Below, one piece after another: positions 10,117 through 26,998 of a DNA stretch of 51,707 nucleotides. Position 1 is the stretch's first letter. Each line of letters starts with the position of its first letter. The translations under genes were made by a program, and so were the position numbers. This DNA is from a virus (lineage: Duplodnaviria; Heunggongvirae; Uroviricota; Caudoviricetes), in IMG/VR virus record IMGVR_UViG_3300032144_000001, positions 73,293 to 124,999 of that record; one strand, written 5' to 3'. The notes under the pieces are model-generated. The model saw nothing but the letters and a program-made list of their open reading frames with translations, ran no database searches and was not told where the DNA came from.

Positions 10117-10455
10117 ATGAGAGTAGCTGAAATTTGTCCGAATTGTGCAACATATATCAATGCGGCATGTATTATATATAATGGTGATTATCTGAAAGCA
10201 ATAAATGCTTCCCCATTAGATTCATTGGATATTATTCTTGAATCAATTAATGATTCATTTGGAGCTATACCTGGAAGTGGTGTTCCTACAAATATTCCAT
10301 CTTTTTATGGTCAATTTTATATTGATAGTGGAACATCTCTATATATAGGATTATCCGATACAATCCCAAATTGGGGATTTGTTGGTACAATAGTTACTAC
10401 GACTACTACAACTAGTACATCAAGTACTACTACAACAACTACTACAACACCTTAA
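10117..10455 (+). CDS. Small structural protein: Cys-containing N-terminal module plus C-terminal poly-Thr/Ser tail
   Basis: 112 aa; N-terminus aligns without gaps with the next gene; ends in 18 consecutive T/S then P; stop overlaps next start (TAATG). Confidence 0.8.
   Translation: MRVAEICPNCATYINAACIIYNGDYLKAINASPLDSLDIILESINDSFGAIPGSGVPTNIPSFYGQFYIDSGTSLYIGLSDTIPNWGFVGTIVTTTTTTSTSSTTTTTTTTP
10396..10449 (+). repeat. Low-complexity Thr/Ser codon run (TTTTTTSTSSTTTTTTTT)
   Basis: 18 codons using mixed ACT/ACA/ACG/AGT/TCA. Confidence 0.9.
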
Positions 10456-12068
10456 TGAGAATCACTTGTAACGATACTGGATGCCCTGTTATCCTAAGTT
10501 CAGAGTGCGTATTTTATGAAGGATCTGCTTTGCCAGAAACTGGAATAAATACAAACGATAGCTTAGAAATAGCTCTTCAAAAGATTGAAGAAGCTATAGC
10601 TAATATTGAAGGCGGAGGCGGTGGTGGAGATGCTGTTTGGGGTCTTATTGAAGGGGTAGTAACAGATCAAACCGATTTAATGGTTTATTTAGCTGCTAAT
10701 TATTTAACTCCTGCTCAAGCAGCAAGTATATATGTACCTTTAGCCAGAACTATTACTATTAATGGTGTAACTCAATCATTAGCAGCCAATAGAACCTGGA
10801 CTGTTGGCGGAGTTACGTCTGTAACTGGAACTCCTGATAGAATAACTATAGGAGGTACAGCTACTGATCCAATTATAGATATAGCTTCTACTTATATTGG
10901 TCAAAGCTCAATTACTACTCTTGGTACAATTACAACTGGAACTTGGCAAGCCTCTGTTATAGGATCTAATTATGGAGGAGCTGGTGCTATAAATGGCCTT
11001 TTAAAAGCTGATGGCTTAGGGGTAGTTTCTCAAGCTATACCTGGAGTTGATTATAGTGCTGCCAGTAACTTACTAATTCAGTCATTTACAGGAGATGGTG
11101 TTGAAGATACATTTACTGTTACAAATGGAACGATTCAACAAATTTTAATTGTTGAAATTGGAGGTATAATTCAGAGATTGAGTACAGATTATACAGTAAG
11201 TGGACAAGACATCATATTTGCAGATGCTCCAGATGCTGGAGTTATTATAACAGTTTACTATTTTGAGGATGTTTTAGTTTCTGCTCCTGTATTTAATGCG
11301 GACATAACTGTTACTTTATCTGGAGGAAAAACGTTAGGAAAATATACAAATGGACAAACTATACCTACTTTAGGTAAAACAATCCAACAGGTTTTAGAAG
11401 ATATAGCAATCGAGTACATCTTCCCTACATGGAACTCCTTCTCTATTACAGGTCAAGCAACTACTGTAGAAGTTGGAACAACTTTATCAGGCTCTAAAAC
11501 ATTCACTTGGAGTATAAATAACAATTCAGGTATTGTTACTACCATTGATTTGTATGATAATACTGCTGCTGCGACATTACTAGCAGGAACTCCAAATGAT
11601 GGATCTCAGGCACAAACTATTACTACTATTCAATTAAACAGTAATGGGGCTACTCAGTCATGGAAAGGTATTGCGAATAACGTATCTCCAGCAGGAACTA
11701 TAAACTCATCCAACTTTGTTGTGACTTCCAGATTCTATTATTTCTATGGCCCTAGTGCTTCTTCACCAGCTAATAGTGCTGCTGTGAGAGCACTTCCCTC
11801 TAGTGCTTTTAGAATAGGAGCAACATCTTTTACATTAAATACAGGAACTACTCTTACAAAATTTGTAGTAGCTTTACCTCCTTCAATAACAATAAGTTCT
11901 GTTATAGATACATCTGCACTAAATGCAAACATTACCTCAGATTACGTACTTACTGGTACAGTAAATGTATTGGATGCTGGAGGAACTAACAGATCGTATA
12001 ATATATATGAAATGAATATAGGAGCACCATATGCTTCTTCACATGCACATTTAATAACAATATCTTAA
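10455..12068 (+). CDS. Tail/appendage fibre protein
   Basis: 537 aa, G/T/S/V-rich beta-type sequence; fibre-like motifs (VPLARTITING, VTSVTGT); located in the structural operon. Confidence 0.7.
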   Translation: MRITCNDTGCPVILSSECVFYEGSALPETGINTNDSLEIALQKIEEAIANIEGGGGGGDAVWGLIEGVVTDQTDLMVYLAANYLTPAQAASIYVPLARTITINGVTQSLAANRTWTVGGVTSVTGTPDRITIGGTATDPIIDIASTYIGQSSITTLGTITTGTWQASVIGSNYGGAGAINGLLKADGLGVVSQAIPGVDYSAASNLLIQSFTGDGVEDTFTVTNGTIQQILIVEIGGIIQRLSTDYTVSGQDIIFADAPDAGVIITVYYFEDVLVSAPVFNADITVTLSGGKTLGKYTNGQTIPTLGKTIQQVLEDIAIEYIFPTWNSFSITGQATTVEVGTTLSGSKTFTWSINNNSGIVTTIDLYDNTAAATLLAGTPNDGSQAQTITTIQLNSNGATQSWKGIANNVSPAGTINSSNFVVTSRFYYFYGPSASSPANSAAVRALPSSAFRIGATSFTLNTGTTLTKFVVALPPSITISSVIDTSALNANITSDYVLTGTVNVLDAGGTNRSYNIYEMNIGAPYASSHAHLITIS

Positions 12069-14302: not shown

Positions 14303-15862
14303 ATGGGTTATATAAATAGACAAATAGGATGGTCACCAGAAGAAATTGAATATCAAAAATTTCTAAAAAACTTGAAAAAGAGAAATCAAGGATTTGGAAA
14401 AACAATTATTCCTGATCCGAGTACTCCATCAGTGTTTGATGATATTTTAGGACATTGGGATGCAGATACCTTTACAGGAACTTCTGGATCGTATGTATTA
14501 ACTGATAAATCAGGTAATGGTCATCCTATGACACAAGCTGCGGGTACTATAACTCCTGGAACATCGACTAATGGAAAACCTAGAATGGTTGGAAACGCTA
14601 CTGCAAGATTTACTTGTCCTTTAACGATGAAATCATGGCCTTTAACAGTAGTTACAGTTTTTAAAAGGACTGCCGCAGCTACTTGTGGATTTTTTGGTCA
14701 CACTGGTACAACTCCATATAATTCAATGTGGGTTGGTTATGAATCATCCAATAGTTTCAGGATATATAATACAAATAGTACAGCTAATACAACAGCAGAA
14801 GCTGGAACTACTTCTTGTTATATTGCAAGAATAGGATATGGATCTAGAATGTCAATCCTTAATGGTATCGTTTTAAATGATTGTCAATTGGGTAGTATTG
14901 TACAGACTGGATTAGTAACTACAACCATAGGTACAGAGTATCGTGGACTTAATGGTGAGTGGCAAAGAACATATGTTTGGGATAGAGAATTAAGTTTGAT
15001 TGAAATGGACGAAGTTCATACTAAGATTAATGAAGATTTTGGAACAGCTATTCCTTTATTTTCTTCATATCCTACATCAAATGTAGTTCTGATCTTTGGT
15101 GACAGTATGATAGGCGGAAGATCTGCCAGAGGAGCAAGTGATGTTAACGTACCTGTTGAATATAGAGGTGCTCAAACTAATGTGGATATTTGGTACGGAA
15201 CCCCTGCCAATAATTTTGGTACTGCATGGAATGACTTTAATTTAACAAATAACAATAATCAACTTAATGACCAGTTTGCAGGAACTAGTACTTATTTTGG
15301 TCCTAATGTATCTTTAGGTAAAGAATATGTTGATAGAACGTCTAATTCTATCAATATCATGCAATCTTCGACAGGTAGCGCTGGTCTTAGTAAAATAGGA
15401 AGTAATGCTTTCTTTGACCCTTTTGATAATTCTTTAACTCAATTAAATCCAGCAAGAGGTTATGGATCTTTTATGAAGAATTATTGGAAATCTTTTTCAG
15501 CTTTACAAGCTAGTGGAACAATACCATCTATTAAAGGAATTATAATAGGTTTAGGTACAAATGATGCTGTGAATCAAACGGCAGCAGATAATTTTGCTAT
15601 ACAGGGTAATTTATTAATACCCCAACTAAGAAGAGAGTTAGGCGTAAGTGCTGATGACTCAAAAATAATTTGGTTGAGAATGCATATAGGAACTACAGGA
15701 GGTACTTACGAAACAATTATAAGAACTAAAACTGCTGAAATAGTAGCAGCCAATCCAAATTGTGTGATGGTAAGTGACGATGCTTACAGCTTTGTAGATG
15801 GAGTACATTTAAATGCAGCGGGAAATATTGGTATTGGTTCAGATTTATCTACTTATCTATAA
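14303..15862 (+). CDS. Virion-associated lectin-like domain plus SGNH hydrolase (carbohydrate O-acetylesterase-like)
   Basis: SGNH blocks LIFGDS, GLGTNDA and DGVH; N-terminal beta-rich GHWDAD domain resembles LamG/ConA; starts with an IGWS helical peptide. Confidence 0.75.
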   Translation: MGYINRQIGWSPEEIEYQKFLKNLKKRNQGFGKTIIPDPSTPSVFDDILGHWDADTFTGTSGSYVLTDKSGNGHPMTQAAGTITPGTSTNGKPRMVGNATARFTCPLTMKSWPLTVVTVFKRTAAATCGFFGHTGTTPYNSMWVGYESSNSFRIYNTNSTANTTAEAGTTSCYIARIGYGSRMSILNGIVLNDCQLGSIVQTGLVTTTIGTEYRGLNGEWQRTYVWDRELSLIEMDEVHTKINEDFGTAIPLFSSYPTSNVVLIFGDSMIGGRSARGASDVNVPVEYRGAQTNVDIWYGTPANNFGTAWNDFNLTNNNNQLNDQFAGTSTYFGPNVSLGKEYVDRTSNSINIMQSSTGSAGLSKIGSNAFFDPFDNSLTQLNPARGYGSFMKNYWKSFSALQASGTIPSIKGIIIGLGTNDAVNQTAADNFAIQGNLLIPQLRRELGVSADDSKIIWLRMHIGTTGGTYETIIRTKTAEIVAANPNCVMVSDDAYSFVDGVHLNAAGNIGIGSDLSTYL

Positions 15863-21871: not shown

Positions 21872-21988
21872 ATGGCACAGGAAATAGGCTGGTCAATACA
21901 AGATAAACTCTTGTATCAAATTAAACAGGAGATAAAGAAAAATAGACAATCTGCTGTCACAGTAAATACTACAACAACTACACCGTAA
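21872..21988 (+). CDS. 38-aa peptide MAQEIGWSIQDKLLYQIKQEIKKNRQSAVTVNTTTTTP (not in ORF track)
   Basis: Hand-translated; fills the 21871-21999 gap; IGWS motif shared with the 14303 protein; poly-Thr-Pro end like the 10117 protein. Confidence 0.8.
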   Translation: MAQEIGWSIQDKLLYQIKQEIKKNRQSAVTVNTTTTTP

Positions 21989-21999
21989 GCTAATAATTA

Positions 22000-23016
22000 A
22001 TGAAAAAACCAATATTAATTACTTGCCAACCGGATGATCAGTATTTTCTATGGCAGAATCATGTATATATAGAATCTTGTCTAGATGTTGGTTTTGAAGA
22101 AGATAAAATTCATATACTTCTCTATAAACCTATAGACAGACCTTTTAATAAGAATTGGACAAAATTAAAAGAATTATATCCTAAATTAAATCTTCATTTA
22201 TATGAAGATAAAGGAGTTGGAGATTATCTTGGAATATACATTCCTATATTAAGACCTCATATTCTCTGGCAGCATTTTGAAAAGTTCCCAGAGCTTGAAA
22301 AAGAAACAATTATATACACAGATTGTGATATAGTATGGACTAAAACTCCAGATATAGCACATCTTTTGGAGGACTCTGCTCATTATATGAGTAATGCTGC
22401 TTCTTATATGAATTATTCTTATTTTGAAAGAAAGAATACTGAGGTATTAGAGTATAAAAAAGAAGACGTAAAAACAAGAGATTTTCTAGCAGAAATATGT
22501 TCTATTGTAGGATTAGACAAGAAAATTGTTGTAGAAAATGATAACAATATCGGAGGAGTTCAATATGTCCTTAAAAATGTAACTGCTAGTTTCTGGAAGA
22601 AAGTTGAAAAAGATGTTCTTCTCATAAGACAACATTTATTAAACATTAATAAGGAGTTTTACGAGAGCGAAAATAAGGGTATTCAAAGTTGGTGTGCTGA
22701 TCTTTGGGCTGTAATATTCAATCTCTGGGCAAAAGGAGATACAGTAAAGATAGTTCCAGAGCTAAACTTTACATGGAGTTCTGATCCAATTAGTAAAATT
22801 AAGGAAACCTCAATTCTTCATAATGCAGGATTAACATCTCCATTTCACAATGGAATACCTGTGATGTATAAGGCTAAGTATATTAATGGATTAAATCCAT
22901 TTAAAGATGTTCATCTATATGAAGTATATAGTGATCCTGAAAGCAAAACATTAGCAAACTATTACTATCTTCAACGTATGTTTGATGTATATAATAAATA
23001 TAGGTTAGAATATTAA
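22000..23016 (+). CDS. GT-A fold glycosyltransferase resembling plant HPAT/SERGT1 peptidyl O-glycosyltransferases
   Basis: DQYFLWQ, YIPILRPHILWQHF, IIYTDCD (DxD) and SWCADLWAV occur in the order of the HPAT/SERGT1 blocks Y..WQ, NRP..F.QW, MAEPD and W..EMY. Confidence 0.7.
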   Translation: MKKPILITCQPDDQYFLWQNHVYIESCLDVGFEEDKIHILLYKPIDRPFNKNWTKLKELYPKLNLHLYEDKGVGDYLGIYIPILRPHILWQHFEKFPELEKETIIYTDCDIVWTKTPDIAHLLEDSAHYMSNAASYMNYSYFERKNTEVLEYKKEDVKTRDFLAEICSIVGLDKKIVVENDNNIGGVQYVLKNVTASFWKKVEKDVLLIRQHLLNINKEFYESENKGIQSWCADLWAVIFNLWAKGDTVKIVPELNFTWSSDPISKIKETSILHNAGLTSPFHNGIPVMYKAKYINGLNPFKDVHLYEVYSDPESKTLANYYYLQRMFDVYNKYRLEY

Positions 23017-23037
23017 ACAATTAATTTTTAAAAATAA

Positions 23038-23223
23038 ATGGCAACAAATAGAAAAGATTTACGTGCTTGGGTACGCTATGACGGAAGTGGTCGTGTAGTA
23101 GCAGGATCATTAATCCTTCGTAAAGATAAACCTAAAGTAGGTCAATGGACTGAAGTTAGATCATATGAGTGTTGTGATCCTCAGTTTCCGACTACAACTA
23201 GTACAACAACAGAAGAAGCTTAA
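23038..23223 (+). CDS. 61-aa protein ending in CCDPQFPTTTSTTTEEA
   Basis: Directly after the GT; basic beta-type body with a Thr/Ser tail; TAATG coupling to the next gene. Confidence 0.75.
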   Translation: MATNRKDLRAWVRYDGSGRVVAGSLILRKDKPKVGQWTEVRSYECCDPQFPTTTSTTTEEA

Positions 23224-23810
23224 TGAAGGTTAGAGGTCCAGTTGATGATTCTGTAAAAAGAGTTTGTAAGGTTTGTAATGTAGAAAAACAATTAAACACT
23301 GAATTCTCATACAGATCTGGATTCGATCTCTATAATCATTATTGTAAAGATTGTGATAATAGAAGACGAAGATTAATTCGTGCTGGACTTCCACTTCCAG
23401 AAGAATATCTAAATCTTACTAGGAGAAGTAAGAAGAAGATAGTCTTTGAAAACAAACCTTATCGAAAGACTCATTTTTACAATCGAAAAAGATTAGATTT
23501 TAAAGCGCACGATAAGAAAAAAGGATGGGAATGTGACTTAACTCCAACATTCATTGAAAGCTGCTACAACTCCAATTGTACTTATTGTGGTTATCCATCT
23601 TGTACAATAGATAGAGTAGACAATGAAATTGGTCATATCATGACTAATTGTGTACCAGCCTGTTATGAGTGTAATACTGCTAGGAATAGACTATTTTCTT
23701 TTGAAGAGATGAAAATATTAGGAAAAGTTATAAAAGAAATTAAAGATAATCGAATAGATTATAATCCTAATACAATATTTCCAAGAACTGTATATGAAAA
23801 TCAACTATAA
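23223..23810 (+). CDS. HNH-family (His-Me finger) endonuclease with Zn fingers
   Basis: CKVC...CKDC N-terminal; CTYCG...IDRVDNEIGH..TNCVPACYECN. Confidence 0.8.
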   Translation: MKVRGPVDDSVKRVCKVCNVEKQLNTEFSYRSGFDLYNHYCKDCDNRRRRLIRAGLPLPEEYLNLTRRSKKKIVFENKPYRKTHFYNRKRLDFKAHDKKKGWECDLTPTFIESCYNSNCTYCGYPSCTIDRVDNEIGHIMTNCVPACYECNTARNRLFSFEEMKILGKVIKEIKDNRIDYNPNTIFPRTVYENQL

Positions 23811-24078
23811 GTATTTTCCTGAAGTCATTCCGGATAATGAACAGATTTTCATTGCTAAACTTATTGGTACAATTGAATCAGTAGATGAGTTATGTTGTTT
23901 ACAGATATCAAAACTTCCTACTTCCTATCATTTTAGGATAGCTCCATCTATTCCAAAGTACAATAACCTCCTTTTACAGGAGGTTTTAAACTTTCATAAT
24001 TTATTTGGTATAAAACTTGATCTTTCAAAGTCAATTAAAACTAGTGGAGTTCTTGCTTTTCATATAAATTTATCATAG
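23794..24078 (+). CDS. Hypothetical protein
   Basis: 94-aa ORF overlapping the HNH gene end. Confidence 0.6.
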   Translation: MKINYKYFPEVIPDNEQIFIAKLIGTIESVDELCCLQISKLPTSYHFRIAPSIPKYNNLLLQEVLNFHNLFGIKLDLSKSIKTSGVLAFHINLS

Positions 24079-24083
24079 GTTTG
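24053..24083 (+). promoter_or_regulatory. Bacteroidota-type promoter (TTG-N20-TAGGTTTG)
   Basis: TTG 24053-24055, 20-nt spacer, TAGGTTTG 24076-24083, ATG at 24107. Confidence 0.55.
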
Positions 24084-24106
24084 TATATAAATTAAACCAA
24101 TGATAT

Positions 24107-24358
24107 ATGGAAATTGTAAAAGAAAATAAACCAGTTTATTCCCCTGAAAAGAAATATAGTTGGAAGGGAAATGATGAGTTTGTAATTAACGGAGCAGAAC
24201 TTAATTTTATTCTGAACTCTGTCAGGAAGATACTTCTTTCAGATCAAGCTCAAAATATCTTCATGTTAGAAAAAGCTAATTCAATGTTAGAAGGTATAAT
24301 GTCTAAAGCAGTAGCAGATGGAAAGATTAAAGAAGTTGAAGAAACAAAAGCCCCTTAG
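24107..24358 (+). CDS. Hypothetical protein, last gene of the + arm
   Basis: 83-aa ORF ending inside the terminator hairpin. Confidence 0.65.
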   Translation: MEIVKENKPVYSPEKKYSWKGNDEFVINGAELNFILNSVRKILLSDQAQNIFMLEKANSMLEGIMSKAVADGKIKEVEETKAP

Positions 24359-24373
24359 TTAGGGGCTTTTTTT
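24346..24373. terminator. Bidirectional intrinsic terminator at the convergence of the two arms
   Basis: AAAAGCCCCT-TAGTT-AGGGGCTTTT followed by further T; A/T tails on both sides. Confidence 0.9.
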
Positions 24374-24927
24374 ATTACTAATAATTTTCTATCTTTCTCT
24401 AGTGATACTTTAGATATATCTTTTTGATGATGAAATAACTCTCTTATTGTATCATAAACTTCTCTTCCTTTTGCTTGTTTACAATGTAAATCTTCTATAA
24501 TGTAATATCCACCTTTTTTAACTCTTGGATATAACATTGTAAAACTAGTTAAAATATCATTTATTTTATGACTACCATCATCTATAATAATGTCATATTC
24601 ATGTGGATGAGTAATTATTAATGATGATAAGTTATTTTGATCTCCTTGATCTCCTATAAAAATAGATACATTCTCCTCTTCAAGCTTTCTAGCATCTGGA
24701 TTTATATCCATTCCTACAAACTTAAGATCAGAAAAGAAAGACTGCCACATTTTTATTGATGTACCTGGAAATCTTGGGTCCATTACACCTATTTCTAGCA
24801 TTCTAATAGGATTATCTTGCCAGAGATAGAATAAAGAAGAATATACCTCTGTATATCCATGAGCTTCAAAGTGCTCATTTCCTCTATCATTTCCTAGTTT
24901 ATTAGCTATTTCAGTAAGTGTATCCAT
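24355..24927 (-). CDS. Class I SAM-dependent methyltransferase (sugar O-methyltransferase-like)
   Basis: HGYTEVY, MLEIGV, GMDI, IFIGDQ, DIIIDDGSH, GGYYIIEDL. Confidence 0.85.
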   Translation of the reverse strand: MDTLTEIANKLGNDRGNEHFEAHGYTEVYSSLFYLWQDNPIRMLEIGVMDPRFPGTSIKMWQSFFSDLKFVGMDINPDARKLEEENVSIFIGDQGDQNNLSSLIITHPHEYDIIIDDGSHKINDILTSFTMLYPRVKKGGYYIIEDLHCKQAKGREVYDTIRELFHHQKDISKVSLEKDRKLLVIKKAPN

Positions 24928-24928
24928 A

Positions 24929-25513
24929 TTAGTTGTGTACGTATAGAACTTTATTTATCTTAAATATATGATAATCTCTGAACTTTTTCTTAAAATCTTC
25001 AACAAATTCACCATCTGCTGCGTATCCTGAACCTAGTTTTATTTGTTTGGCTAAATCAGTTTTAACCGCAAAAGCACCAATATCTATCTGTCCATTAGCA
25101 GGAATACATTTAAAATAAGAATAATCAAAACTATTATGCACCATATCCCAATAGACCATACCTGGAGAACCTTTTAACTCTTTTTTAAGTTCTGAAACAA
25201 AAGTAGGGACATAATAATTATCATCTCCTGTCATAATAATATAATCAGCTTTACTATTTTGTTTACCTAATTCCCTAGGAGTATGTCCAAAATCCTTACT
25301 TCTTTGGTTAGTAATCATAAAACTGATTCGTTCATCCTCAAAGCTGGATATTAATTTAGAGGTTTTCTGAACCACATCAGAATAAGCATAATCATCTATT
25401 ACTACTACAGCAGTCCATTCTTTATCAGTTTGAGCTACTAAACAAGATAAGATAACTTTAAGTTCATTATCTCTATTCCAGGTAGGGATTATAAATTCAA
25501 CAGTTTTACTCAT
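24929..25513 (-). CDS. Glycosyltransferase family 2
   Basis: IIPTWNR, VVIDD, DFGHTPRELG, YIIMTGDDNYY. Confidence 0.85.
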   Translation of the reverse strand: MSKTVEFIIPTWNRDNELKVILSCLVAQTDKEWTAVVVIDDYAYSDVVQKTSKLISSFEDERISFMITNQRSKDFGHTPRELGKQNSKADYIIMTGDDNYYVPTFVSELKKELKGSPGMVYWDMVHNSFDYSYFKCIPANGQIDIGAFAVKTDLAKQIKLGSGYAADGEFVEDFKKKFRDYHIFKINKVLYVHN

Positions 25514-26249
25514 TTTTTAGTTTTAAAAATCTAGAATTCTTATTTTTATTTAATATTGATCTTAGATTAGAGTATCCTATTCCTATAGAAGAAGATAATT
25601 CCAGAATTGAATCATAAAATATGCCTGTTTCTAAATCAAGAACTTTAGTGCAAATTCTCTCTAACATTTTTGGACCATGTTTCTTCCCATAGAAGCCATT
25701 ATTTTCACCTTTCTGATTATTATTTTGTCTTATTTTTTGTTTACTTTCTTCAGAATGAGTTTTACCATAAAATGGATTGTTTTTACCAGAAGTAGCTCTA
25801 CTTATCTTTAATTTTACTTCATTAGAATGTTTATATTCGTTTTTTATTCTAGTAGATATGAATTTATCTACGACTTCCTTAGGTCTTTTTCTACCCTTTA
25901 AAATATTTCTTATTTTATCTCTATGTTCTTTGGTTCTTTCATATACTACTCCATTACCTCCTTCTCCACCATCTGTCATATTAGCTAATATTCCTGTATT
26001 TATATTTATTCTTCCATAAAGCTTAATAAATTCTTTCTCTTTTTCATTAACTTCATCAAAACTGATATTATCAAATAAAATTTCTACTTCATATTCAGTT
26101 TTATTTACTATCTTTTTCCAAATATTGTTTCTATCACATTTTTCATGTGCTCTATTATAATCATCAAAAGAAGTAGTACCTCCAATTCCTATATAAAAAG
26201 GTTCATTTTTGTCTAGTCTTATATGGCGATATAAATAACAAGTGTTCAT
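25506..26249 (-). CDS. GIY-YIG homing endonuclease with NUMOD3 repeats
   Basis: YLYRH...FYIGIG, NMTDGGEG, HSEESKQKI and NPFYGKTH repeats. Confidence 0.9.
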   Translation of the reverse strand: MNTCYLYRHIRLDKNEPFYIGIGGTTSFDDYNRAHEKCDRNNIWKKIVNKTEYEVEILFDNISFDEVNEKEKEFIKLYGRININTGILANMTDGGEGGNGVVYERTKEHRDKIRNILKGRKRPKEVVDKFISTRIKNEYKHSNEVKLKISRATSGKNNPFYGKTHSEESKQKIRQNNNQKGENNGFYGKKHGPKMLERICTKVLDLETGIFYDSILELSSSIGIGYSNLRSILNKNKNSRFLKLKNE

Positions 26250-26998
26250 TTTTTCCTATATTGATTTAGGAGTTTTACATAATCTCTATTCCATTTTGGT
26301 TTCAAGTAAATTCTACCTGTTGGTACTTTTCCCTGTAATCTCATGTTTTCTAAATAATTAAAATTTCTTTCAATTATATTTAATCTTCCAGGATGGTCAG
26401 TTCCTTCACCGCTCTGATGAAAATTACCTAAACCCTCTTTACTTTCAGGAGTTGCCCATCTGTAGAACCAACTAGGATTCTCAGGTTCAGCATGAACTAC
26501 CTTTTTAGGATCTAAAGCTCTAATAGTATCCGTTAAAGTAGTATCTCCTCCAGCATTCATAATTGGACTTTTACCTATATCCAACCAAGCTTTCTTACTA
26601 TAGACTATTCCACTATTACCTATCCATCCTACATCTGTAATATTAGGTTCATTATAAAATACTCCTTTTTTCCAGTGCAGTAGGTTAGTATCCTCTTTAA
26701 ACCATTCCTTAATATTAGTTAAATGCCAAGGCATGGCAATATCATCATCATCCCATACAGCAAAGATATCACCAGAGCACTGCTCTAGTGCAAAGTTCTC
26801 CTTATCCCCTATAGTAGGGAAAATCTCCTTGGAATTGAATATTTTTACATTAGGATGGTCATAAATAAGAGTTTGATGAGGATAGTCGTTAACTATAATA
26901 AGTTCTGACTCTTCATGCCCTTCTGCCTGTAAAAAAGAATAGAGTGCTTCTTCTAACAGATGCACTCTACCCATTGTAATCATTTTACAACTAATCAT
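26246..26998 (-). CDS. Glycosyltransferase family 2-like
   Basis: CKMITMGR..LLEEALYSF, LIIVND, IGDKENFALEQCSGDIFAVWDDDD. Confidence 0.85.
   Translation of the reverse strand: MISCKMITMGRVHLLEEALYSFLQAEGHEESELIIVNDYPHQTLIYDHPNVKIFNSKEIFPTIGDKENFALEQCSGDIFAVWDDDDIAMPWHLTNIKEWFKEDTNLLHWKKGVFYNEPNITDVGWIGNSGIVYSKKAWLDIGKSPIMNAGGDTTLTDTIRALDPKKVVHAEPENPSWFYRWATPESKEGLGNFHQSGEGTDHPGRLNIIERNFNYLENMRLQGKVPTGRIYLKPKWNRDYVKLLNQYRKK

Follow-up and report, generated by a model that had tools for sequence, protein, structure and literature searches.

Several groups of peptide O-glycosyltransferases have been described. In plants, HPAT1-3 and RDN1/PLENTY are hydroxyproline (Hyp) O-arabinosyltransferases (CAZy family GT95) and SERGT1 belongs to GT96; the acceptor context of the plant enzymes is the Ser-Hyp4 motif of extensins. 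In bacteria, serine-rich-repeat adhesins are glycosylated by GtfA/B. Streptococci also carry out O-glycosylation of Ser/Thr-rich disordered regions (PMC12041528). Among phages, the mycobacteriophages Che8, Corndog and Myrna encode glycosyltransferases that act on capsid and tail-tube proteins (Freeman et al. 2023, via PMC12363180 and PMC11256854). According to these two articles, glycosylation of virion proteins by phage-encoded enzymes has to date been demonstrated in no more than a few mycobacteriophages, where it shields the particles from antibodies (PMC12363180, PMC11256854). Here we describe a 51,707-nucleotide stretch of phage DNA (the window; positions 73,293 to 124,999 of the IMG/VR record IMGVR_UViG_3300032144_000001) that encodes a 338-amino-acid protein lying among small genes with threonine (Thr) tracts. 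We consider it probable (about 0.7) that this protein is a soluble, metal-dependent GT-A enzyme which sugar-modifies contiguous Thr residues of virion proteins in the cytoplasm of the infected cell.

The enzyme gene is flanked, upstream and downstream respectively, by the 38-residue and 61-residue 'stub' genes listed below, and a third small gene of this kind is found earlier in the window.

10117-10455, plus strand: 112-amino-acid protein with a Cys-containing N-terminal module and an 18-residue Thr/Ser tail followed by P, as seen in the translation; candidate acceptor.
21872-21988, plus strand: 38-amino-acid protein with an N-terminal 'IGWS' module and then TTTTTP (the protein ends VNTTTTTP), conserved in relatives; candidate acceptor.
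22000-23016, plus strand: 338-amino-acid soluble GT-A glycosyltransferase with an HPAT/SERGT1-like fold (phrog_4417); proposed poly-Thr protein O-glycosyltransferase.
23038-23223, plus strand: 61-amino-acid protein with a 46-residue 'YECC' module and then PTTTSTTTEEA, conserved in relatives; candidate acceptor.

We observed that the 338-residue protein matched the profile of phrog_4417, a function-unknown phage family, with an E-value of 4.2e-46 (residues 6-304 aligned with positions 3-271 of a profile 293 positions long). No Pfam-A family was found for it at E ≤ 0.1, there was no NCBIfam match, and a profile search of the Protein Data Bank (PDB) sequences with the enzyme family returned nothing below E 0.09. 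An exhaustive homologue search yielded 715 cluster representatives at E ≤ 1e-3, 249 of them at 1e-30 or better, and about half of the representatives of the family are longer, multi-domain proteins. Across an alignment of 79 diverse homologues, four residues were invariant: D108 and D110 (in T-D-C-D-I), H274 and K291. Judging by the alignment, D108/D110 and H274 correspond to the DxD and the distal His of GT-A enzymes that depend on a metal.

The fold pointed in the same direction. The AlphaFold2 model, for which the 79-member alignment was the input, had a predicted local distance difference test score (pLDDT) of 97.1 and a predicted template-modeling score (pTM) of 0.93. When the model was compared with the Swiss-Prot section of the AlphaFold database (AFDB) using Foldseek, the first-ranked match was Arabidopsis SERGT1, a peptidyl-serine alpha-galactosyltransferase (E 1.3e-9), and HPAT1-3, PLENTY, RDN1/2 and NOD3 matched residues 1-332 at template-modeling (TM) scores of 0.60-0.64. 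The best matches among solved structures (PDB) were WbbM, glycogenin, XXYLT1 and UGGT, which make up the GT8/GT24 group within the GT-A enzymes. In a comparison with 2.3 million fold clusters, three uncharacterised clusters of the enzyme's own family ranked first; these were followed by 'Hydroxyproline O-arabinosyltransferase-like domain' clusters and GT8. The model opens with beta-strand 1 (residues 5-11), and has no N-terminal helix, hydrophobic stretch or membrane anchor. A sequence-only reading of the window had called the enzyme HPAT/SERGT1-like. This label holds for the fold and fails for sequence membership: since the identity is 11-12%, no profile matches and the membrane anchor is missing, the enzyme forms a separate family and is not a member of HPAT/SERGT1. 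One member of the phage family, P0216 (792 amino acids), carries an internal TTTTTSTTTT run beside its HPAT-like domain, and may have enzyme and acceptor on one chain.

We then turn to the gene context of the family across phages. Using tblastn with the 338-residue protein, homologues were found in 77 cultured phage records, the hosts of which include Lactobacillus, Enterococcus, Staphylococcus, Lactococcus, Clostridium and Chryseobacterium, among others. At the loci inspected, the enzyme gene was situated in a late structural operon beside a Thr-rich gene, typically between the tail tube and tail chaperone genes. In a forward test on 19 loci found by enzyme homology, the gene immediately upstream was Thr-rich in 16 of the 19. 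Counting open reading frames (ORFs) at these loci, 21 of the 38 adjacent to the enzyme were Thr-rich, as against 21 of the 437 others (Fisher 3.5e-15). The loci represent at least ten phage lineages, and the putative acceptor proteins are non-homologous.

The individual phages illustrate this pattern. In phiFL1A, a Thr/Ser run of 21 residues closes the major tail protein gp50, and the enzyme homologue gp51 follows directly, while the capsid-region protein gp45 has Thr runs at its C-terminal end. The major structural protein orf13 of Lactococcus phage 1706 is followed by the homologue orf14, and the capsid/protease protein of this phage ends with a nine-Thr run. Both in Staphylococcus phage SA2 and in Clostridium phage phiCTP1 the enzyme homologue comes after the tail tube protein gene; in phiCTP1, Thr tails are present on the tail tube, head and portal proteins. 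The enzyme was likewise found beside a Thr-rich gene in Lactobacillus phage Semele, Lacticaseibacillus phage R3.3 and Chryseobacterium phage MA9V-3. The Lactobacillus phage SAC12B had been considered as a counter-example (enzyme without poly-Thr) and was rejected as one, as its upstream ORF ends in TTV(K/A)P repeats. The well-studied Gram-positive carriers (loci L013 for phiFL1A, L016 for VPE25, L017 for 1706, L019 for SA2 and L020 for phiCTP1) have poly-Thr C-termini on several different virion proteins (capsid, portal, tail tube). Two virion proteins of 1706 share an identical ending, a poly-Thr run and then HHD.

The association was also seen when the search was started from the Thr tracts. 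For this reverse test, IMG/VR was scanned for nine consecutive ACN codons, which gave 118 loci, 100 of them with an in-frame run of at least six Thr. The enzyme was present at nine of these 100 loci, and in all nine cases it lay immediately downstream of the poly-Thr ORF and on the same strand. Against a background of 77 in 50,697 whole phage records (0.15%, which is a generous figure), this corresponds to P ~7e-14.

A comparison of orthologues gave a similar picture. Among SPP1-type tail proteins that are 50-60% identical, Thr tails were found in the enzyme carriers phiFL1A and R3.3, and the Thr run was missing from the orthologues in the Streptococcus phages Javan47, Javan505 and Javan311 and the Lactobacillus phages phiJL-1 and ATCC8014. 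The enzyme was absent from these five phages by a profile search which found all five of the positive controls (5/5). Three of the four enzyme-less genomes examined had no six-Thr codon run anywhere. The sequence-only reading had proposed the co-occurrence of the glycosyltransferase with poly-Thr genes as a check; on both tests (16/19 forward, 9/9 reverse) the outcome was strongly positive, and it extends well beyond the crAss-like phages.

We also evaluated the Thr tracts of the phage itself. The phage genome is 125 kb long, and the window makes up its right-hand 51.7 kb; CheckV rates the whole contig (G000) as complete. With Thr making up 6.1% of the ~35,000 residues coded by the whole genome, 0.03 runs of at least five Thr would be expected, as against five proteins observed with such runs. 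All five poly-Thr proteins are encoded in the structural arm. The codons of the runs are mixed (ACT, ACA, ACG, AGT and TCA), so that the runs are not simple DNA microsatellites and selection at the protein level is indicated. Besides the three small genes, two larger ones located outside the window carry such tracts: a 390-residue protein encoded by the third gene after the major capsid protein (G000:C1:46627-47799), with a C-terminal 18-residue Thr/Ser tail, and a 1610-residue virion structural protein (phrog_37948; G000:C1:54334-59166), with a 40-residue Thr/Ser tract near the C-terminus. The N-terminal 52 residues of the 112-residue protein resemble the start of the product of the next gene, 10455-12068, a virion structural protein of 537 residues (E 3e-5).

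The stubs are conserved in related IMG/VR contigs, where the enzyme is 35-59% identical and the same small ORFs occur at the same positions. The upstream ORF of these relatives has 44-49 residues and consists of the motif QIGWSxExxLLxQISKQL and then a Thr run (directly upstream of the enzyme in L001, L003, L005 and L006). The downstream ORF begins with a 46-residue module ending in YECC, which has 18 invariant positions over six homologues; what comes after this module is either Thr runs or a larger domain at the C-terminus. Long fibre-like proteins of the relatives start with the IGWS module too, as does the 519-residue protein 14303-15862 of the window. A third swappable N-terminal module, 'FIKxGFW...', heads further fibre-like proteins (L001 7018-7494, L002 7022-7465, L001 8453-9103 and L003 8114-10279); in L001 7018-7494 and L002 7022-7465 it is followed by a poly-Thr linker, and these two have a common C-terminal ending, '...LEIRVY'. 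The FIKxGFW proteins suggest a family of docking modules with exchangeable cargo. One Thr-linked fibre of a relative (L161 2866-5991) has a GDSL lipase domain. We infer that the modules dock cargo onto the virion, and that the sole 'cargo' of the stubs is the Thr tract.

Put together, these observations allow a mechanism to be proposed. The enzyme would use a nucleotide-sugar as the donor and attach its sugar to the hydroxyls of Thr in tracts of virion proteins. In this phage the predicted acceptors would be the 38-, 61- and 112-residue proteins together with the 390- and 1610-residue proteins. As the longer fibre-like proteins begin with the same modules as the stubs, the stubs (i.e. a module and then only a Thr tract) may be small glycan-bearing appendages of the virion.

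The phage can be called crAss-like in a broad sense, since crAss-type PHROG families were hit with its terminase, portal and capsid protein. The large terminase shows 40% identity to that of Leptolyngbya phage Lbo-JY46, and 27-33% identity to its counterparts in Cellulophaga phi4:1-type and human-gut crAss-like phages. When 24 kb of the window was compared with cultured phages by megablast, no match was obtained. The structural and fibre genes are on the plus strand up to 24358, and from 24355 onward the genes are on the minus strand. The remaining features of the locus are as follows.

23223-23810, plus strand: HNH/EndoVII-like gene of the homing-endonuclease type (phrog_1035), directly after the 61-residue stub gene.
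24346-24370, no single strand: strong bidirectional terminator-like hairpin, with a perfect 10-bp stem (five GC pairs) and T-runs on both strands.
24355-24927, minus strand: class I S-adenosylmethionine-dependent methyltransferase of 190 amino acids, MycE/TylF-like (phrog_21658, 1.7e-21); possible sugar O-methyltransferase.
24929-25513, minus strand: GT2a, a family 2 glycosyltransferase (GT2) of 194 amino acids (PF00535, 1.7e-6; virus-specific GT2 clusters); possible accessory glycan-extending enzyme.
25506-26249, minus strand: GIY-YIG/NUMOD3 homing endonuclease (PF07460, E 6e-20), which splits the GT2 genes.
26246-26998, minus strand: GT2b, a GT2 of 250 amino acids (PF00535, 8e-7; virus-specific GT2 clusters); probable accessory glycan-extending enzyme.

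The hairpin is the meeting point of two convergent arms, the structural arm with the enzyme and the stubs on one side, and the arm with the methyltransferase and the GT2 genes on the other. Both genes of the homing-endonuclease type lie inside the candidate system, and the sequence-only reading had not mentioned them; the other ORFs that it described (three Thr-tailed small genes, the glycosyltransferase, the methyltransferase and two GT2 genes) are all present as described. In the relative L005, a 197-residue ORF is located between the IGWS stub and the enzyme gene.

We further estimated how firmly the genes of the second arm can be assigned. Both GT2 proteins scored above the PF00535 cut-off of 23.3 bits (28.5 bits for GT2a and 29.5 bits for GT2b). 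GT2a also matched exopolysaccharide (EPS), PglI and WcaA-type GT2 models weakly, far below their cut-offs. The methyltransferase remained below the cut-offs of TylF (15.7 bits against 23) and Methyltransf_24 (18.4 bits against 26.3), and the structural neighbour of its Atlas model is the cluster of MycE, a macrolide sugar O-methyltransferase (TM 0.86).

Domain fusions connect these functions to the enzyme family. P0165 is a triple fusion of a Methyltransf_24 domain, a GT2b-like domain and an HPAT-like domain, and its middle domain is 30% identical to the GT2b of the window (E 2.7e-8). P0208 joins an N-terminal GT2b-like domain to the HPAT-like domain, and the genes of P0165 and P0208 each come directly after a Thr-rich ORF. 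P0172 and P0210 have a C-terminal GT2-like/Glyco_transf_7C domain, and P0157 an N-terminal Methyltransf_24 domain. When the window methyltransferase and GT2a were aligned with the fusion proteins by pairwise BLAST, we observed superfamily-level similarity or none, so the clear match is confined to GT2b.

The methyltransferase has its closest homologues in cultured phages in 13 mycobacteriophage records, at 30-34% identity, and there the gene comes directly after a glycosyltransferase gene. In Omega (L163 2172-5543), gp15 is the major head protein, gp16 a glycosyltransferase and gp17 the methyltransferase homologous to that of the window. In McProf the glycosyltransferase-methyltransferase pair is gp43/gp44, and the terminase genes lie downstream of it.

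Elaboration of the primary sugar is the probable role of the two GT2 enzymes and of the MycE/TylF-like methyltransferase, as a lineage-specific add-on outside the conserved core. Each of these genes is lacking in some, or even all, of the relatives that were examined, so they are accessory. We conclude that the conserved core is the enzyme with its Thr tags; the GT2/methyltransferase block is, at roughly even odds, a plausible lineage-specific elaboration of it. The interpretation of the sequence-only reading, in which the GT2 enzymes extend the glycan and the methyltransferase caps it, so that the virion would bear a mucin-like brush, is supported in part. Its HPAT-like fold and its pairing of the glycosyltransferase with poly-Thr genes were borne out. 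The roles that it gave to the GT2 enzymes and the methyltransferase have indirect backing from the fusions and from the methyltransferase-glycosyltransferase pairing of mycobacteriophages, and they are set back by the absence of these genes from relatives and by their separate arm.

A number of observations weigh against the proposed glycosylation of poly-Thr tracts, or against the part of it that involves the second arm. The proposal draws wholly on a predicted fold and on gene context, and the structural similarity to HPAT/SERGT1 is moderate, at the low identity given above and with no Pfam match. At 91 of the 100 poly-Thr loci of the reverse test, no enzyme was found within the fetched flanks, so that Thr tracts exist without the enzyme too. 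In VPE25, the Thr-tailed proteins are 1.4-1.8 kb from the enzyme gene and not adjacent to it. The loci compared are not phylogenetically independent, and the adjacency could come in part from a shared mobile cassette. As for the second arm, the complete relative G001 (which has terminal repeats) keeps the enzyme and the poly-Thr genes and has no GT2; five relatives were checked for the methyltransferase and none yielded it; no PF00535 gene was found in the five Gram-positive enzyme carriers; and the block belongs to a different transcription arm from the enzyme.

These last points are also what recommends the strongest of the alternatives, which we hold as a serious though tentative one: the enzyme glycosylates the Thr tracts, but the block of GT2a, GT2b and the methyltransferase serves another target, so that each Thr would carry a single type of sugar. 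The absences from G001 (GT2), from the five relatives (methyltransferase) and from the five Gram-positive carriers (GT2) all fit it. So does the position of the block in the other arm, behind the bidirectional terminator, and so does the search of cultured phages with GT2b, which found no homologue (the relatives G003 and G004 do have one). Evidence on the other side comes from the fusions, as these join Methyltransf_24 and GT2b-like domains (the latter at the 30% identity to the window GT2b already given) to the HPAT-like domain by Thr-rich genes, and from the pairing of the methyltransferase family with glycosyltransferases beside capsid genes in mycobacteriophages.

It is also conceivable, although improbable in our estimate, that the enzyme modifies an envelope polymer of the host (capsule, O-antigen, teichoic acid or cell-wall polysaccharide) in the manner of seroconverting phage glycosyltransferases, the Thr tracts being flexible linkers that are its neighbours by chance. 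The building of lipopolysaccharide and other polysaccharides is common for GT-A and GT8-like enzymes, and the fold matches include WbbM and RfaJ-type enzymes; GT2a weakly resembles EPS and WcaA-type enzymes, and the Thr runs are inter-domain linkers in several relatives. However, the enzyme family is found in strictly lytic as well as temperate phages, and the enzyme is embedded in late structural operons and has no membrane segment. This explanation would further leave unaccounted for the fact that Thr tails on orthologous tail proteins are confined to the phages with the enzyme, as well as the immediate adjacency in nine of nine cases of the reverse test.

The glycosylation of phage DNA is well known, e.g. 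in T-even phages, and the methyltransferase/GT2 block does lie at the end of the arm with replication genes; yet a role of the glycosyltransferases and the methyltransferase in making a glycosylated or methylated hypermodified base against restriction is the least likely explanation and very improbable, given that no thymidylate-synthase-like hydroxymethylase for pyrimidines (PF00303) is encoded in the complete 125-kb genome, which makes this route less likely, that the 338-residue enzyme is in the structural arm (and within tail operons in the Gram-positive phages), that the structural neighbours of the methyltransferase are sugar O-methyltransferases (MycE) and not DNA methyltransferases, and that its phage homologues are found by capsid genes and glycosyltransferases.

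Returning to the glycosylation of poly-Thr tracts, we favour, somewhat less firmly than the assignment of the single enzyme, a wider proposal. The members of phrog_4417 would be widespread and so far unrecognised phage protein O-glycosyltransferases, with the plant HPAT/SERGT1 enzymes as their nearest structural kin, that recognise a 'poly-Thr tag' carried by proteins of the capsid, portal, tail tube and fibres. Glycan-coated virions would then be a feature of phages that infect Bacteroidota and Bacillota, VPE25, phiFL1A, SA2 and 1706 among them, and the crAss-like lineage would add a 'glyco-stub' display and an elaboration by the GT2 enzymes and the methyltransferase.

If this is true, glycosylated virions would be common in gut, dairy and clinical phages, and a short, transferable poly-Thr tag with one enzyme of 300 residues would suffice to glycosylate a virion protein. 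It would bear on the immunogenicity and pharmacokinetics of phages in therapy, on the adherence of gut phages to mucus, on virion stability and on engineered glycan display. Bacterial viruses would join plants and algae as a source of the HPAT/SERGT1 structural class. Cultured carrier phages already exist, which makes the hypothesis directly testable, and the Gram-positive carriers are ready experimental systems.

When the locus is compared with the known systems, the HPAT/SERGT1 enzymes are the best named structural matches (residues 1-337, TM 0.56-0.64), and they have in common with the phage enzyme the GT-A fold with its DxD. The acceptors are also alike, in that runs of hydroxyl-bearing residues in an extended, low-complexity peptide serve the plant enzymes and are proposed for the phage enzyme. 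The phage enzyme differs in being encoded by phages of bacteria, in lacking a type II membrane anchor or a secretory (Golgi) context, and in its predicted acceptor, which from the gene context would be Thr and not Hyp or Ser.

The GT8 enzymes (glycogenin, XXYLT1, RfaJ) and UGGT (GT24) were the top matches among solved structures (E ~1e-6; TM by query 0.38-0.49). They have the DxD and C-terminal His arrangement in common with the phage enzyme, and three of them, glycogenin, XXYLT1 and UGGT, have proteins or glycans linked to proteins as their substrates. However, their TM scores are below those of the HPATs, there is no PF01501 match, and the phage enzyme has an extra helical region of ~80 residues. 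The streptococcal and GtfA/B systems are similar in that low-complexity Ser/Thr tracts are glycosylated in the bacterial world, but they use other enzyme families and act on cellular and not virion proteins, and the streptococcal site is extracytoplasmic. No enzyme named after either system appeared among the matches obtained here.

The mycobacteriophages are linked to the window through its methyltransferase, which is homologous (31-34% identity) to methyltransferases adjoining glycosyltransferase genes, by the capsid gene in Omega. Mycobacterium phages are not among the 77 tblastn records with a homologue of the 338-residue enzyme, so the priming enzyme family differs from that of the mycobacteriophage system, and a poly-Thr tail is lacking from the capsid protein of Omega, so that the acceptor code is different as well. 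The hosts are different too, being Bacteroidota-type and Bacillota here. In the literature, of which our coverage was incomplete, we found no report of a phage HPAT-like enzyme, of virion glycosylation in crAss-like phages, or of poly-Thr tails linked to glycosylation. Together, these comparisons have led us to suggest that, while self-glycosylation by phages is itself already known, the enzyme family and the acceptor code proposed here from sequence would be new.

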